64,000 nucleotides of DNA, from positions 27,901-91,900 of the forward strand of contig JAGYLJ010000001.1 in the NCBI GenBank assembly GCA_018401295.1. The letters are read 5' to 3'. Position 1 is the first letter of the stretch. Every line of letters begins with the position of its first letter. Position numbers and translations under genes: made by a program. Origin of the DNA: a bacterium (GTDB taxonomy: Bacteria; Patescibacteriota; Minisyncoccia; Phycocordibacterales; UBA12079). The notes under the pieces are model-generated. The model made no database searches. It was not told where the DNA came from and was given only the letters and a program-made list of their open reading frames with translations. Positions 27,933 through 57,773 of this stretch are shown piece by piece.

Positions 27933-27993
27933 GGACTAAAAAAGCCCTAACGCTAACGCGTCAGGACTTAGCTAGTTTTAGCTTCGGGGAGTG

Positions 27994-28009
27994 TCCGCCA
28001 GCTGGCGGA
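27994..28009. repeat. GC-rich 16-nt perfect palindrome tccgccagctggcgga
   Basis: Self-complementary. A 15/16-identical copy (tccgccggctggcgga) interrupts the tRNA-Asn 5' pseudo-copy at 56925..56940. Confidence 0.7.
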
Positions 28010-29996: not shown

Positions 29997-30020
29997 TTGT
30001 CTGCTCCGGCGGCAGGGCTC
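29997..30020. repeat. Island-distal att-type direct repeat (displaced copy of the tRNA-Asn 3' end)
   Basis: ttgtctgctccggcggcagggctc is identical over 24/24 nt to 56561..56584. Both flanking bases differ. Confidence 0.85.
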
Positions 30021-40993: not shown

Positions 40994-41375
40994 TTCTAGC
41001 GGGTTTTAAAATGGAAGAAGTCTTTTGAATACCAAAAGGCTTCCCGCCATTGCGATGAACCGAAGCTCACCCATACAGATTTCTCCATATGACCCGCTAG
41101 AGTGACTTTGGACGAGAAGCCTTTTAGACTCTAGCGGGATTTTCACCATACCTTTTGAAATTCAAAAGGGTTAGGCTACTTATATTTAATTGTTAATGAA
41201 TATAATATCAAATATTCTGATATTATTCTATACCCTAACTTAAAGGAGGGAATTTGTGAAGCGATAGTTACCTACTTCTTACCAACTTATATAAATGCTG
41301 GACTTTAAAATTCATTGCGTCATTAATAGAGTTATGGAAAATGTTGCAATAAACCCGCTAGAAGTGACTTTGATT
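40994..41375. repeat. Nested inverted/direct repeats built on CTAGCGGG, running into the recombinase 5' end
   Basis: ttctagcgggttt 40994-41006 versus aaacccgctagaa 41351-41363. cccgctagagt 41093-41103 versus actctagcggg 41128-41138. acccgctagagtgactttg versus acccgctagaagtgactttg. Confidence 0.8.
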
Positions 41376-42674
41376 AGAGATACTATACAATCTCCAAAGT
41401 ACTGTTTATACGCCCGTAAATCAACAGAACAGGACGAATTACAAGCTCTTTCGATTGATTCTCAAATCAAAGAGATGACAGATATGGCGGTGAAAGAAGA
41501 GCTTGATATTGTTGAGATTAGAAAAGAAAGTCACTCAGCTAAAGATTCAGGGAGCAGACCTGTTTTTAATCAATTAATTGAAGATATAAAATTAGGAAAA
41601 TTTACGGGGATAATTTGTTGGGCACCTGATAGGTTGAGCAGAAATGCTGGAGATTTAGGACGGGTGGTAGATTTAATGGATCAAGGATTTTTGGTAGATA
41701 TCAGAACTCACGGACAAAGATTTACTAATAATCCAAATGAAAAGTTTTTGTTAATGATTTTAGGAAGTCAGGCAAAACTTGAAAATGATCATAAAGGAGA
41801 AAATGTAAAGAGAGGATTGAGAGCAAAATGTGAGCAAGGTTGGCGACCAGGAGTTTCTCCTGTTGGGTATATTCATGATAAGTATTTAGATAAAGGACAA
41901 AAGAAAGTATTTATTGATGAAGAAAAAGCCCCTGTCATTAAAGAAATGTTCGAAAAAGTGGCTTACGAAAAATATAGTGGGAGAGATGTTTATGTTTGGT
42001 TAGTAAAAGAAAAAGATTTCAGAACTAAAAATGATAAGAGATTAGCTTTGAGTAGAATTTATAAGATTTTCAGTGACACATATTATTATGGTGAGTTTGA
42101 ATATCCTGTGGGAAGTGAAAATTGGTATCAAGGTAAACATGATCCAATCATAACAAAAGAGTTATTTTTGAAAGCCAAAGCAAATTTACAAACTCCACCT
42201 AAACGATACCCTGGAACTAAAGAATTTGATTTTACTCAATTAATGTTTTGTGGAAATTGTGGTTCAGGAATATCTGCGGAAGAAAAATTTAAACATCAGA
42301 AGAATGGAAATACTCATCGTTATGTTTACTATCATTGTTCAAGAGGTAAAGATAGATTTTGTAAAGAGAAAGCTATAAGAGAGGAAGAACTCATTAAACA
42401 ATTAATTCAAATGATAGATAAAATAGATATTGATGAAATTAGTGCTCAAGGCAAAATTAAAAAAGAAGTTATGAGATTTAGAAAATTCAGTTATGGAGTA
42501 TTTGGACAAGAAACAGAATTTGATAAAAGACCAATCGAAGCAGATATTCGAAACTATGCAAAGTATATTCTTACAGATGGCACAAAAGACGATAAAAGAG
42601 AGTTGCTGGGGTGTTTAAGAAGTAGGTTGGAAATAAGAGAGAAGAGAGTGCTTTTGTCCCCAAACAATCAATAA
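41334..42674 (+). CDS. Large serine recombinase (resolvase catalytic domain + recombinase domain + zinc ribbon)
   Basis: 'YCLYARKSTEQDELQALSIDSQ' (catalytic Ser), 'WAPDRLSRN', 'KGENVKRGL' and Zn ribbon 'CGNCGS...YYHCS'. ATG at 41334 preferred to 41295. Confidence 0.85.
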   Translation: MENVAINPLEVTLIRDTIQSPKYCLYARKSTEQDELQALSIDSQIKEMTDMAVKEELDIVEIRKESHSAKDSGSRPVFNQLIEDIKLGKFTGIICWAPDRLSRNAGDLGRVVDLMDQGFLVDIRTHGQRFTNNPNEKFLLMILGSQAKLENDHKGENVKRGLRAKCEQGWRPGVSPVGYIHDKYLDKGQKKVFIDEEKAPVIKEMFEKVAYEKYSGRDVYVWLVKEKDFRTKNDKRLALSRIYKIFSDTYYYGEFEYPVGSENWYQGKHDPIITKELFLKAKANLQTPPKRYPGTKEFDFTQLMFCGNCGSGISAEEKFKHQKNGNTHRYVYYHCSRGKDRFCKEKAIREEELIKQLIQMIDKIDIDEISAQGKIKKEVMRFRKFSYGVFGQETEFDKRPIEADIRNYAKYILTDGTKDDKRELLGCLRSRLEIREKRVLLSPNNQ

Positions 42675-56211: not shown

Positions 56212-56481
56212 TTATAGACGGACATTAATCCATGTCCAAATATCTCGATGCATCCATCCTTGATGAGCTCCGTTTACTATTTGTGTTATGAAAATTCTAT
56301 CATTAATATCTAAGTGAACTCTAAGATTTTCATATATTTGACCAGAAGTCCATGTTGTGGAAACAAACCAAACTGAGTCTAATCCATTATCTCTTATAAA
56401 GTCATAACGTCTTAATGCAGAATAAAGACTGTTGTAGTCTTTCCCTGTTTTATTAAGATCATAAGTAATTAAGTAAACCAT
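56212..56481 (-). CDS. Small protein with a Cas2/VapD-like beta-alpha-beta-beta-alpha-beta pattern (tentative)
   Basis: 'MVYLITYDL...YNSLYSALRRY...SVWFVSTT...QIYENLRVHL...DRIFITQI' parallels the VapD/Cas2 layout (compare VapD 'MYAIAFDL'). Sits 6 nt upstream of the PIN-like gene. Confidence 0.3.
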   Translation of the reverse strand: MVYLITYDLNKTGKDYNSLYSALRRYDFIRDNGLDSVWFVSTTWTSGQIYENLRVHLDINDRIFITQIVNGAHQGWMHRDIWTWINVRL

Positions 56482-56510
56482 TTTTGAATTATATCATAAT
56501 TTACAAAACA

Positions 56511-56550
56511 TAAGAAAACCGACCCGATCCCCAGACGGGGACGGGTCGGT
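56511..56550 (-). terminator. Rho-independent terminator following tRNA-Asn (lies inside the island end)
   Basis: Minus strand: accgacccg-tcccc-gtct-gggga-t-cgggtcggt followed by tttctta. Confidence 0.6.
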
Positions 56551-56560
56551 TTCACCAAAA

Positions 56561-56584
56561 TTGTCTGCTCCGGCGGCAGGGCTC
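56561..56584. repeat. att-type direct repeat at tRNA-Asn (last 17 nt of the tRNA + 7 nt of flank)
   Basis: Identical to 29997..30020. Confidence 0.85.
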
Positions 56585-56640
56585 GAACCTGCGACAAAGC
56601 GATTAACAGTCGCTTGCTCTACCAACTGAGCTACGCCGGA
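56568..56640 (-). tRNA. tRNA-Asn (anticodon GTT)
   Basis: Manual cloverleaf: acceptor TCCGGCG/CGCCGGA, D arm GCTC-AGTTGGTA-GAGC, anticodon arm AGCGA-CTGTTAA-TCGCT, variable TTGTC, T arm GCAGG-TTCGAGC-CCTGC, discriminator G. CCA is not encoded. Confidence 0.95.
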
Positions 56641-56882
56641 ATGTTTTGTTTTATAAATTCTCTTCCTCTAAAACTTTTTAATTGCTTCTCTCTTTTTAAA
56701 GCTGAAGCTCTGTCTAAAAATTTTTCTTTATAAAAAACCTCCCAATTTCCAGAAAATTTTGATGTATAGCTTCTGACAAAAGTTTTCTTGTTATGCATCT
56801 GTAATCTTTCTCTTATATTCTGGGTTTGCCCTATATAAAAAACATTATTCTCTTTATTATATATAGCATAAACAATGTACAT
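56631..56882 (-). CDS. GIY-YIG nuclease family protein (small, UPF0213/YhbQ-like)
   Basis: 'MYIVYAIYNKENNVFYIGQTQNIRERLQMHN' and 'REKQLKSFRGRE'. The last 10 nt, including the TAG stop, lie inside tRNA-Asn. Confidence 0.85.
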   Translation of the reverse strand: MYIVYAIYNKENNVFYIGQTQNIRERLQMHNKKTFVRSYTSKFSGNWEVFYKEKFLDRASALKREKQLKSFRGREFIKQNIPA

Positions 56883-56914
56883 ATTTTATCTAAAATATAC
56901 CACAACATAATCTA

Positions 56915-56954
56915 TTGCTCTACCTCCGCCGGCTGGCGGATGAGCTACGCCGGA
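56915..56954 (-). pseudogene. Partial copy of tRNA-Asn positions 1-26 with a 16-nt hairpin replacing 3 nt of the D loop
   Basis: Plus strand ttgctctacc[tccgccggctggcgga]tgagctacgccgga versus the genuine ttgctctacc[aac]tgagctacgccgga at 56614..56640. Confidence 0.8.
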
Positions 56955-56965
56955 ATACTTCTCGT

Positions 56966-56993
56966 ATTTTACACAAAAATTAAGCAGAAGTAA
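56966..56993 (-). promoter_or_regulatory. Putative sigma-70-type promoter upstream of the tRNA fragment/GIY-YIG/tRNA-Asn unit
   Basis: Minus strand: TTACTT-N16-TAAAAT, about 11 nt before the tRNA-fragment 5' end. Confidence 0.35.
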
Positions 56994-57062
56994 ATATTAA
57001 ATTAATATTAAACCTGTGTATTTTCAATCTTGCAAAATTCTGTTTTGTGATATAATTAACCT

Positions 57063-57773
57063 ATGAAAAAATATGTAATTTTGATTGTATCGCTCATAGC
57101 CATACTAATTCTAGTTTTTGCTATTATTAGTAATAGAGAAATAAAAACATTAACGTTACCTTTAGAAGAAGTAAATTTAGAAGAAACAAATTTAGGGGAA
57201 GAGATAAAAGAAAGAAATTCAGGTGGTTATAAAATAACAGATGACGCTATTTTTATTAATTTACCCCAAGACATTGGGTTAACGGGGACAACAAGTGATA
57301 TGATTACAAATCAAGCTACATCGAGTTTAAGGTTAACTAGTTCTATATTTAATAATCAAGAAACAATTCCCTCGAAATACACCTGTGATGGTGAAAATAT
57401 AAGTCCTTCTTTTGAAATATTTGGAGTAAACCCTGAGGCCAAGTCTTTAGTTTTAATTATGGATGATCCTGATGCCTCACCAGAAGTTTGGAACCATTGG
57501 ATTAAATTTAACATTCCTCCTACCACTCAAGAAATAATAGAAGGAGAAGAACCGGAAGGAATTTCTGGGGAAGGAACTGGGGGAGATTTAGGTTATTCAG
57601 GTCCTTGTCCTCCTGATAATGAACACAGTTACGTTTTTAGGTTGTATTCACTAGATGCAGAATTGACTCTCCCAGAAGGGAGTTCTCGAGAAGAAGTTGA
57701 GAAGGGGATGGAAGGACATATTTTACAAACAGCAGAATTAACAGGAAAGTATGAAAGGGTAATAAGTCTGTAA
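57063..57773 (+). CDS. YbhB/YbcL-family PEBP (Raf kinase inhibitor-like) protein, exported
   Basis: 'IPSKYTCDGENISPSFEI', 'LIMDDPDA', 'WNHWIKFNIP' and 'GPCPPDNEHSYVFRLYSLD'. Confidence 0.85.
   Translation: MKKYVILIVSLIAILILVFAIISNREIKTLTLPLEEVNLEETNLGEEIKERNSGGYKITDDAIFINLPQDIGLTGTTSDMITNQATSSLRLTSSIFNNQETIPSKYTCDGENISPSFEIFGVNPEAKSLVLIMDDPDASPEVWNHWIKFNIPPTTQEIIEGEEPEGISGEGTGGDLGYSGPCPPDNEHSYVFRLYSLDAELTLPEGSSREEVEKGMEGHILQTAELTGKYERVISL

Follow-up and report, generated by a model that had tools for sequence, protein, structure and literature searches.

A GIY-YIG nuclease gene nested between a tRNA-Asn gene and a hairpin-bearing copy of its 5' part: a putative tRNA-gene cassette in Patescibacteria and other phyla

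Introduction

Why would a nuclease gene share its last nucleotides with a tRNA gene and be preceded by a broken copy of the beginning of the same tRNA? This question is raised by a locus in the window analysed in this work, i.e., a 64-kb stretch of contig JAGYLJ010000001.1 from a member of Patescibacteria, in which an 83-aa GIY-YIG open reading frame (ORF) is enclosed by an intact tRNA-Asn(GTT) gene and a copy of tRNA positions 1-26 interrupted by a 16-nt hairpin. We hypothesize, with about even confidence, that the locus is one copy of a small (~315 bp) selfish, recombination-driven cassette specialised for tRNA genes. It belongs to a widespread family of tRNA-nested nuclease cassettes with a shared hairpin, which is found in several phyla and is apparently undescribed. 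No paper was found that links GIY-YIG genes with adjacency to bacterial tRNA-Asn or tRNA-Met or that contains the palindrome; the literature covered is incomplete and a prior description is possible.

Structure of the locus

All features of the locus lie on the minus strand. The first is a promoter-like site, TTTACT-17-TAAAAT (56966..56994), just 5' of the tRNA fragment. The fragment (A*) has a left arm, TTCCGGCGTAGCTCA (56941..56955), which equals tRNA-Asn positions -1 to 14 and is an exact copy of 56641-56627, and a right arm, GGTAGAGCAA (56915..56924), which is identical in sequence to tRNA positions 18-27. Between the arms, a 16-nt hairpin or palindrome (tccgccagccggcgga / TCCGCCAGCCGGCGGA; 56925..56940) stands in place of the D-loop residues G15-U16-U17, and represents the AGCC-loop variant of the consensus TCCGCCAGCTGGCGGA. 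It has a 6-bp stem and a 4-nt loop, a z of -3.7 as DNA, and is also present in the minimum free energy fold of the RNA. An AT-rich spacer of 32 nt (56883..56914) leads from A* to the ATG; it is devoid of a Shine-Dalgarno sequence and contains TTTTAGATAAAAT, resembling the -10 region of the tRNA promoter of L082, the only metagenome contig that shares the exact tRNA 3' half of the window. The ORF (56631..56882) encodes the catalytic domain of a Slx1/UPF0213-like GIY-YIG nuclease and nothing else (Pfam E=1.7e-15). It overlaps the intact tRNA-Asn(GTT) gene (56567..56640; identified by ARAGORN, 69.7 bits with the Rfam tRNA model) by 10 nt (56631..56640). The ORF ends in ATT CCG GCG TAG, in which (AT)T CCG GCG TAG represents tRNA positions 1-10 and the stop codon is U8-A9-G10 of the tRNA. 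This is the sole tRNA in the window. An Rfam scan of 56300-57200 returned the tRNA only, and the leader and hairpin match no known RNA family.

The left-arm 15-mer is present exactly twice in the 64 kb (56955-56941 and 56641-56627) against a chance expectation of 0.00. A chance origin of the repeat was therefore rejected, also because the arrangement recurs in dozens of lineages. An earlier note on this DNA, made from the letters alone, had described the tRNA fragment, hairpin, spacer, ORF and intact tRNA, as well as the identity of the final codons with the first 10 nt of the tRNA, and all of these were recovered at the same places. Its promoter, TTACTT-N16-TAAAAT, stood in part: a site is present and aligns with L082, whereas the scan places it 1 nt away with the spacing given above. 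By itself, the promoter scan was not above chance (3 found vs. 3.8 expected). However, both hexamers together with TAAAATACGAG align with the tRNA promoter of L082 (TTGGAC...TAAAATACGAG), and the same TTGGAC...TATAAAAT arrangement is present in L151, a lineage with the cassette.

Occurrence in Patescibacteria

Close homologues of the ORF with 82-83 aa number hundreds in Patescibacteria. From these, 80 loci (L001-L080) were fetched, one each from 80 species-level genomes. By ARAGORN, tRNA-Asn(GTT) follows the ORF directly and on the same strand in 67 of the 80 loci. The remaining 13 comprise 10 tRNA-Asn genes with an intron-like insertion in the anticodon loop, one contig end, one N-masked sequence, and L036, in which the ORF ends in a second hairpin-bearing fragment and an intact tRNA was not resolved. 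The 10-nt overlap of ORF and tRNA, for which the earlier note had proposed a survey, occurs exactly in 41 loci besides the window. In this frame, the protein ends in IPx, where x is the translation of acceptor-stem nucleotides 5-7. A minority of the ORFs enter the tRNA in another frame and stop at the second tRNA TAG (D-loop GGTAG), which gives the tail SPVAQW, and one copy stops at the anticodon-loop UAA.

Both the window and 53 of 76 loci have a copy of the tRNA 5' end upstream of the ORF, at a distance of 41-112 nt from the ATG except for one outlier within the tandem array of L063. Two doubts raised by the earlier note, that the upstream similarity might be absent elsewhere and that the ORF might stand beside unrelated genes with no tRNA duplication, are not borne out: the similarity is conserved to this extent, and tRNA-Asn adjoins the ORF in essentially all 80 loci. 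The fragment carries the acceptor stem of its own lineage (TCCGGCG, TCCCCTG, TCCGCGA and others). By comparing fragment and resident tRNA in 38 main-type loci, the identity was 99% at positions 1-13, 96% at 18-26, 46% at 27-31, and 30% at 32-38. It begins sharply at +1, and position -1 differs in 8 loci. The fragment also follows the unpaired D-loop positions and the D-loop length of the resident tRNA. Positions 27-38 decayed in the same period, so the 1-26 part of the fragment and the hairpin must be maintained, either by selection or by continual homogenisation. In a few loci (L016, L031, L048, and L078), the fragment reaches the anticodon loop.

About a quarter of the cassettes have a -10 box in leaderless geometry; at exactly 6 nt before the ATG, such a TATAAT box is present in 13 of 77 cassettes. 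It was dropped as a cassette-specific feature, because control ORFs of the same loci peak identically: TATAAT-like hexamers precede 37 of 442 ordinary ATG ORFs of at least 100 aa in L001-L080 at this distance. This suggests that leaderless mRNAs are common in these Patescibacteria. An internal tRNA promoter formed by the conserved F-I-K codons was likewise rejected, as the nucleotides are conserved only as the codons require.

Group I introns at position 35/36 of tRNA-Asn are common in Patescibacteria, and their reported ORFs are of the HNH type, not GIY-YIG; the same study is silent on GIY-YIG genes, duplication and hairpins (PMC13011429). In our material, tRNA-Asn is interrupted after CTGT (35/36) by at least ~240 nt in L082, L005, L015, L028, L031, L032, L037, L040, L041, L043, and L075, with clear group I features (e.g., GATATAGTCC) in L082, L028, L040, and L043; ARAGORN misses such interrupted tRNAs. 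These insertions agree with the introns of the published study. In the related loci, they interrupt the tRNA 3' of the ORF at 35/36 and do not include the ORF.

The 16-nt hairpin

The hairpin [TC]C[CT]GCC-N4-GGCGG[AG] lies just 5' of the ORF in 76 of the 80 loci. Its dominant form is the perfect palindrome TCCGCCAGCTGGCGGA, which is nearly invariant. The loop variants are AGCC (in the window), AACT, GGCT, and AGTT, and the stem variants are rare, with one compensatory pair. In 51 of 52 loci, the 16-mer has taken the place of precisely those 3 nt that precede G18, and A14 is kept only where the resident D-loop has four nucleotides at that place. The hairpin, described as a disruption of the fragment in the earlier note, is not an incidental one, given its near-invariance, this 3-nt precision, and its sharing with Bacteroidota cassettes. 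In other loci, it stands in place of A9-C11 (L013, L024, L026, L028, and L040), before position 1 (L076), or in place of G53-T55 in tRNA 3' fragments downstream of the gene (L025, L039, L059, and L076). It was also found in a peripheral loop of a group I intron (L041, with a degenerate copy in L028), and in seven loci one hairpin is nested in the loop of another. The 16-mer is not bordered by a target-site duplication or by terminal repeats.

No consistent pattern was found between the loop variant of the hairpin and the resident D-loop sequence. Whether the hairpin acts as RNA or DNA was approached by comparing sense and antisense wobble in its variants, which gave roughly 5 vs. 2, too few variants for a decision. 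A role as a mimic of the tRNA-Asn acceptor stem was dropped, because the identical hairpin serves tRNA-Met cassettes. As background, the exact 16-mer occurs 55 times in all IMG/VR, and none of these 55 copies lies beside a GIY-YIG ORF or a tRNA. A phage origin was rejected on the basis of this background and of the absence of the ORF family from IMG/VR.

Solo hairpins occur about once per 100 kb in the DNA examined. The window contains one such exact palindrome TCCGCCAGCTGGCGGA in an intergenic position (27994..28009), without an ORF or recognisable tRNA fragment alongside, where Rfam gave nothing credible. It sits 2 kb outside the genomic island described below. About 25 nt before it (~27948-27972) lies a second GC-rich hairpin motif, CCTAACGC-TAA(C)-GCGTC(A/G)GG, similar to one after tRNA-Asn in L010 (~1850-1880); motifs of this type may represent another family of dispersed hairpins.

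The nuclease

The protein belongs to the GIY-YIG superfamily (Pfam PF01541, 57.5 bits vs. a cut-off of 22.6), and its family counts 7,944 cluster representatives at E <= 0.001. In an alignment of 25 sequences, 28 positions are invariant, including Y5, Y16, G18, R26, H30, and E65, and the C-terminal Ile-Pro is also invariant, with a single variable residue after it. In the comparison with I-TevI, residues 4-33 align to its residues 5-34, where Y5, Y16, R26, and H30 correspond to the catalytic Y6, Y17, R27, and H31, while E65 aligns with the conserved Glu of UPF0213. The AlphaFold2 model (pLDDT 96) contains strands E2-9, E14-20, and E47-55 and helices H23-31, H58-69, and H71-78. Its best fold matches are UPF0213 BH0048, Slx1, and HIGLE (TMq 0.54-0.72), with the I-TevI and UvrC domains lower. 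The best sequence matches in the PDB, UPF0213 EF2693 and BH0048, are weak (E = 0.007; 21-22% identity).

The 83 aa are entirely taken up by the catalytic domain, so there is no DNA-binding extension, and no invariant Asn follows E65 in the alignment. The protein is thus a minimal domain lacking both the auxiliary domain and the C-terminal Asn, as in the stand-alone Slx1-like/UPF0213 group (PMC1564403). It has no linker and no C-terminal DNA-binding region of the I-TevI/Seg type. With regard to the homing event suggested in the earlier note, the protein is not a homing endonuclease of that type and clusters with the stand-alone Slx1/UPF0213-like nucleases. The NCBIfam model of group I intron endonucleases gave 24 bits against a cut-off of 56 and covered residues 4-35 only. 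The ORF also does not lie within such an intron, as region 56300-57200 is free of introns in Rfam and the downstream tRNA is uninterrupted. Full-length matches were absent in NCBIfam, PHROGs, and PADLOC; the PADLOC matches cover 25-40 residues of the GIY region (PDC-S14, UzuA, and HEase models) at E >= 2e-5 and do not indicate a defence system. We infer from the fold that the protein may cleave branched DNA in a structure-specific manner, as Slx1-Slx4 does. A survey from 2006 regarded such stand-alone proteins as vertically inherited repair factors and noted a fusion to TrmH, a tRNA G18 methylase (PMC1564403).

Other phyla and other tRNAs

In the general form of the design, copies of one tRNA stand on either side of the ORF, and a single copy among them is intact; the others are broken by GC-rich hairpins, and the 3' end of the ORF enters a tRNA copy. 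The ORF lies upstream of the tRNA in Patescibacteria and downstream of it in other phyla. In Sumerlaeota, Kiritimatiellia, and a 3-Mb genome, the members of the tRNA-Asn subfamily are situated just 3' of the intact tRNA-Asn, often in tandem, and end in TAG (8-10) or TAA (36-38) of a tRNA-Asn pseudo-copy, which contains hairpins such as TCCGCCACGGCGGA or TTCGCC...GGCGAA. In an Acidobacterium, tRNA-Arg is followed after 9 nt by the ORF and then by another tRNA-Arg, in which GTCGCCGCGGCGAC stands in place of the 5' strand of the anticodon stem. The tRNA-Met subfamily occurs in Bacteroidota, including Sphingobacterium spiritivorum (CP068083, ~1.092-1.094 Mb) and Mucilaginibacter jinjuensis (CP117167, ~5.258-5.261 Mb), whose homologues have 81-88 aa. 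Here the ORFs lie 37-59 nt after tRNA-Met, singly or in tandem. Behind them comes a 3' fragment of tRNA-Met, with the identical TCCGCCAGCTGGCGGA before it. Exact copies of TCCGCCAGCTGGCGGA occur three times in 2.6 kb of L146 and once in L147, the variants TCCGCC[TC]ACCGGCGGA in L145, and L147 has two upstream fragments that consist of tRNA-Met 1-13 and the D-loop hairpin. The neighbouring genes differ in every lineage, and no integrase or transposase is consistently near.

In one Sumerlaeota locus (L138, 1141-1450), four tandem units of 76 nt follow tRNA-Asn, each composed of a spacer, GGTGGCTGTTAA, the hairpin TTCGCCTCAGGCGAA, and the tRNA 3' end; the GIY-YIG ORF lies ~50 nt beyond the last unit. 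Many distant proteins of the family have predicted N- or C-terminal extensions that are translated tRNA or hairpin. In public gene calls (P0121-P0270), such artefactual peptides include PPAGGGRA and RQLAEVE from the hairpin fragment, VAQW/VAQR from TAGCTCAATGG, AHNPKV.GSSP from tRNA-Met, and AVNRRV from tRNA-Asn. Beyond the cassettes, genes for a reverse transcriptase with a helix-turn-helix protein, a large serine recombinase, and a PIN/Phd toxin-antitoxin pair were observed (L139 2118-3240; L145 2016-2667; L143 1882-2504). Because such island and defence cargo adjoins cassettes in other phyla, the tRNA genes that host cassettes are, judging from this gene content, also integration hot spots.

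Gain, loss, and selection

The presence/absence polymorphism of the cassette is apparent from three close lineages, two of which have it and one of which does not. In the latter, L082, a PEBP gene lies upstream, the promoter is homologous, and the tRNA-Asn exons are identical to those of the window, while the fragment, hairpin, and ORF are all absent. The comparison of relatives with and without the unit, proposed in the earlier note, thus found the same promoter and identical exons in a cassette-free allele. The reading of the locus as an insertion is upheld insofar as the unit lies between the native promoter and the tRNA and leaves the tRNA intact; it is not, as had been assumed, a singular event, since the arrangement is family-wide. 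The tRNA of L082 carries a group I intron of ~240 nt at 35/36 (543-786). The longer leader of L082 was considered as a remnant of the ORF 3' end and dropped, because it is homologous to the leader 5' of the fragment in L151.

Tandem arrays were found in L047, L063, L139, L141, and L146, with the order fragment-ORF-fragment-ORF...tRNA in L047 and L063. An extra fragment 3' of the ORF (ORF-fragment-spacer-tRNA) occurs in L008, L011, L018, L027, L036, and L078, and frameshifted or read-through ORFs in L008, L010, L028, L071, and L078; in a few loci, the ORF is frameshifted or truncated. The fragments of L025 and L076 have acceptor sequences that mismatch the resident tRNA, which would fit an origin in another lineage.

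Between species, the median pS is 0.86 and the median pN 0.20, so that the synonymous sites are essentially saturated, and the closest informative pair has a dN/dS of ~0.04. The ORF is thus under strong purifying selection. The L001/L151 lineage shares the gene order of the window (PPIase, S30AE, PF1765-like, PEBP, cassette, and tRNA-Asn). No exact protein is on record for the PEBP neighbour in the window. Because the synonymous sites are saturated and the ORF is better conserved than its housekeeping neighbours, the cassette copies are, as judged from sequence divergence, old, functional, and selected, and not fresh insertions. The GC3 of the ORF is always below the GC of the host, yet correlated with it (rho 0.55).

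Origin and mobility of the cassette

The selfish cassette is our favoured explanation, because tRNA repeats stand on both sides of the ORF, a cassette-free allele exists, arrays and fragments not matching the resident tRNA occur, and also because of the AT bias of the ORF, the subfamily-specific tRNA identity, and the dispersal of the hairpin. According to this hypothesis, the tRNA-derived repeats would be built-in, portable homology arms, by which any copy of that tRNA gene could receive the cassette through homologous or break-induced recombination while the tRNA is spared. The nuclease would supply the initiating cut, and unequal exchange between the tRNA repeats would expand or delete the cassette. 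Recombination between the repeats would thus lead to the tandem arrays, to the cassette-free alleles, and to fragments that track the resident tRNA. The hairpin would mark the junction with the displaced tRNA piece. Most likely, it is either the nuclease's own site (for binding, autoregulation, or cruciform/hairpin cleavage) or a device that keeps the pseudo-copy uncut and unrecombined.

Transcription would start at the promoter of the tRNA, to which some lineages would add a leaderless promoter located in the spacer, and would give an ORF-tRNA co-transcript. It is plausible that the ORF rides on the tRNA promoter, which is supported by the homology of this promoter to that of L082. RNase P cuts at tRNA +1. 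Its cut in the co-transcript would deprive the ORF of its final codons together with the stop codon, so that one transcript could serve either as an mRNA or as a tRNA precursor, and translation and tRNA maturation would therefore compete.

Several points weigh against a selfish cassette. While the anatomy of the locus and its conservation, the polymorphism, the tandem arrays, the purifying selection on the ORF, and the fold are shown by the data, the activity of the nuclease, its target, the recombination mechanism, the co-transcription, and the consequence for RNase P are inferred. The intact tRNA always adjoins the nuclease gene, so self-cleavage would be unexplained if the tRNA were the target, and the protein has no additional DNA-binding domain that would let it recognise a particular tRNA gene. 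The ORF family is also absent from viral contigs (IMG/VR). With the single cassette-free relative found, a never-invaded allele and a precise deletion are equally possible. The identity of ORF and that of tRNA are not correlated (Spearman 0.03), and since both are short and saturated, horizontal transfer is neither supported nor excluded by this value. Most ORF copies are intact, unlike in the usual cycle of decay of homing endonucleases, and the saturation of synonymous sites in almost all species pairs fits an old, vertically kept gene. Between the window and L151, the ORF is 70% identical, compared with 54% for PEBP, 53% for S30AE, and 60% for the PF1765-like gene. This conservation fits an old, vertically kept, and possibly host-useful gene at least equally well.

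The rival that survives best, although we consider it somewhat unlikely, takes up these last points: the nuclease and its structured leader would be a domesticated module useful to the host, kept as an old, vertically inherited operon with the tRNA. In such a module, the 5' acceptor strand of the leader could compete for the 3' acceptor strand of the tRNA and couple translation to tRNA-Asn maturation, or the leader could be an autoregulation operator. The nuclease might guard the tRNA gene, an island hot spot, resolve structures at highly transcribed tRNA genes, or act on RNA. Besides the purifying selection at saturated sites, the better conservation compared with housekeeping neighbours, and the intactness of most copies, the ~96-100% conservation of A*(1-26) and hairpin against the decayed positions 27-38 speaks for a selected module and not a relic. 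The sharp start of the fragment identity at +1, the frequency of islands and attachment-site (att) remnants at these tRNAs, and the standing of Slx1-like stand-alone proteins as vertical repair factors, with the TrmH fusion (PMC1564403), point the same way. However, the close relative L082 has a fully functional-looking locus without the cassette, and the tandem arrays, the extra fragments, and the solo hairpins are what selfish repeats typically produce. The L013-type hairpin removes A9-C11 and leaves no D-stem, which argues against a tRNA-like fold of the leader, and a fragment that tracks even the unpaired D-loop positions and the D-loop length points to homogenisation rather than to selection for pairing. 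A single regulatory design is also hard to reconcile with an ORF that precedes the tRNA in one phylum but follows it in others, or with an ORF GC that is always below that of the host.

A second rival, which we regard as quite improbable, is that the cassette is moved in trans by a recombinase encoded elsewhere, in an integron- or insertion sequence-like manner, with the hairpin as a recombination site recognised in its folded single-strand form, like attC or REP sequences, and the ORF as cargo or an accessory. Promoterless units of a small ORF and a hairpin standing in tandem beside a promoter would agree with this, as would the precise exchange of 3 nt for 16 nt and the occurrence of the hairpin alone, in other hairpins, in group I intron loops, and in tRNA 3' fragments, as if it inserted itself. 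On the other hand, the ORF in every unit is of the same family and was the only cargo seen, integrases or transposases are not consistently near and the neighbours vary by lineage, the hairpin is co-conserved across phyla with the nuclease and no other protein, and the 16-mer lacks target-site duplications and terminal repeats. The last rival, a relic of a homing endonuclease that once sat in a group I intron at tRNA-Asn 35/36 and that a rearrangement with an intron-less copy left as 5' exon, ORF, and whole tRNA, is very improbable: such introns are common in the phylum (PMC13011429) and occur in ~10 of the 80 loci and in L082, some fragments reach the anticodon loop, and the window ORF with tRNA 1-35 occupies the place of the L082 intron, but cassette and intron coexist in these ~10 loci, the conserved part of the fragment ends at 26 and not 35, the design recurs at tRNA-Met and tRNA-Arg, as well as 3' of tRNAs in phyla where such an intron plays no part, the intron ORFs reported from Patescibacteria tRNA-Asn are HNH, and the protein is Slx1-like and outside the clade of intron endonucleases.

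Extending the selfish cassette hypothesis, we suggest only tentatively that there is a class of minimal mobile elements in several phyla, built from an 80-90-aa Slx1-like GIY-YIG nuclease and the 16-nt hairpin on which it would act. Such elements would colonise tRNA genes by part-duplication, spread via nuclease-stimulated recombination between repeats, seed solo hairpins into loops of other structured DNA, and form subfamilies for tRNA-Asn, tRNA-Met, and tRNA-Arg. The relation of nuclease and hairpin would be comparable to that of RAYT and REP, but the pair would be built on a nuclease.

Comparison with known systems

Among published GIY-YIG genes located amid tRNA genes, T4 SegB comes closest (PMC2330249). 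The Seg genes of T-even phages, and SegB in particular, resemble the cassette in being GIY-YIG genes outside introns and beside tRNA genes, and in the presumed benefit, which is preferential inheritance of the gene and its flanks via break repair. However, SegB-type enzymes have a C-terminal DNA-binding region and cluster with homing endonucleases and UvrC, whereas the cassette protein is an 83-aa Slx1/UPF0213 catalytic domain. The Seg genes also show no tRNA overlap, no duplication of a tRNA segment, and no conserved hairpin, all three of which are present in the cassette. The UPF0213 proteins (YhbQ-type, COG2827; PDB 1zg2 and 1ywl) are similar to the cassette protein in size, fold, and the lack of a C-terminal extension and Asn, but the UPF0213/Slx1-like proteins have not been linked with tRNA genes, hairpins, or gene-tRNA overlap in the survey of the superfamily (PMC1564403), and the cassette has these.

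Phages and islands that target tRNA genes share with the cassette the insertion in a tRNA gene, the intact tRNA, and the partial duplicate at the other junction, and the 26.5-kb island at this tRNA is a typical tRNA-restoring integrative element of this kind. These elements measure kilobases, have their own integrase gene, and nearly always leave a duplicate of the 3' part of the tRNA, whereas the cassette has ~315 bp and no recombinase. Although direct repeats of tRNA segments are present, the cassette encodes a nuclease only and hence is not an integrase-type element. In Patescibacteria, it is the 5' part of the tRNA that the cassette duplicates, and it thereby captures the tRNA promoter; its ORF and the tRNA also have nucleotides in common.

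I-TevI reportedly represses its own gene through an operator that resembles the homing site yet is uncut. The hairpin-bearing fragment would be similar, purely by analogy, as a target-like sequence 5' of a nuclease gene that overlaps expression signals and is altered at the would-be cleavage point; I-TevI binds the operator via its DNA-binding domain, whereas the cassette protein is without that domain. With REP/RAYT and integron attC, the cassette shares a dispersed short hairpin clustered by one conserved enzyme gene, and nested hairpins. The enzymes of those systems are HUH or tyrosine recombinases and not GIY-YIG nucleases, and the cassette hairpin has far fewer copies and is tightly linked to tRNA fragments.

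If the hypothesis is true, at least a large part of the "GIY-YIG nuclease family proteins", annotated without a function and once assumed to be repair factors, would be tRNA-gene-associated cassettes with a cis element. This would change the annotation of these genes and of the surrounding tRNA fragments, as gene calls already read through hairpin and tRNA. It would also mean that an element with a nuclease only can live inside an essential single-copy tRNA gene of the reduced Patescibacteria genomes, sharing its stop codon with the tRNA and probably competing with RNase P for the same transcript. Since the palindrome and a homologous ORF are present in the cultured Sphingobacterium spiritivorum and Mucilaginibacter jinjuensis, the hypothesis can be tested in the laboratory, which is rare for features of uncultured Patescibacteria.

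The island at the same tRNA

The 3' end of the tRNA-Asn gene is the attachment site of an island of 26.5 kb (30020-56563), as the earlier note had proposed. The 22-nt direct repeat GAGCCCTGCCGCCGGAGCAGAC at the tRNA (56563..56584, minus strand) has its distal copy at 29999..30020 on the same strand, and the interval contains a large serine recombinase and defence genes, so both the recombinase and the direct repeats expected of an integrative element are present. Next to the distal copy lies the original terminator of the tRNA, homologous to the post-tRNA sequence in L082 and L151; the terminator that follows the tRNA directly in L082 is thus the sequence displaced to the far end of the island in the window. 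Besides the recombinase, the genes of the island encode AbiJ-like, ThsB-TIR, LexA-like repressor, two N6/N4 methylase, terminase-like, and GmrSD proteins, a type I restriction-modification system (HsdM/S/R), a YgjP-like peptidase, a Cas4-like PD-(D/E)XK nuclease, SNase-Excalibur, and PIN_8. Based on this gene content, the 26.5-kb interval is a defence island. At its edge, directly 3' of the tRNA, an 89-aa ORF (56212-56481, minus strand) without a match in Pfam or PADLOC is followed by the PIN_8 protein; this ORF is conserved together with the locus in the Logan contig L081. Inside the island, a LOOT RNA (Rfam RF03000) was identified at 41054-41177 on the minus strand, where its 76.8 bits exceed the gathering score of 46.4. 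The large serine recombinase gene (41295-42674) has this RNA immediately upstream, encoded on the other strand.

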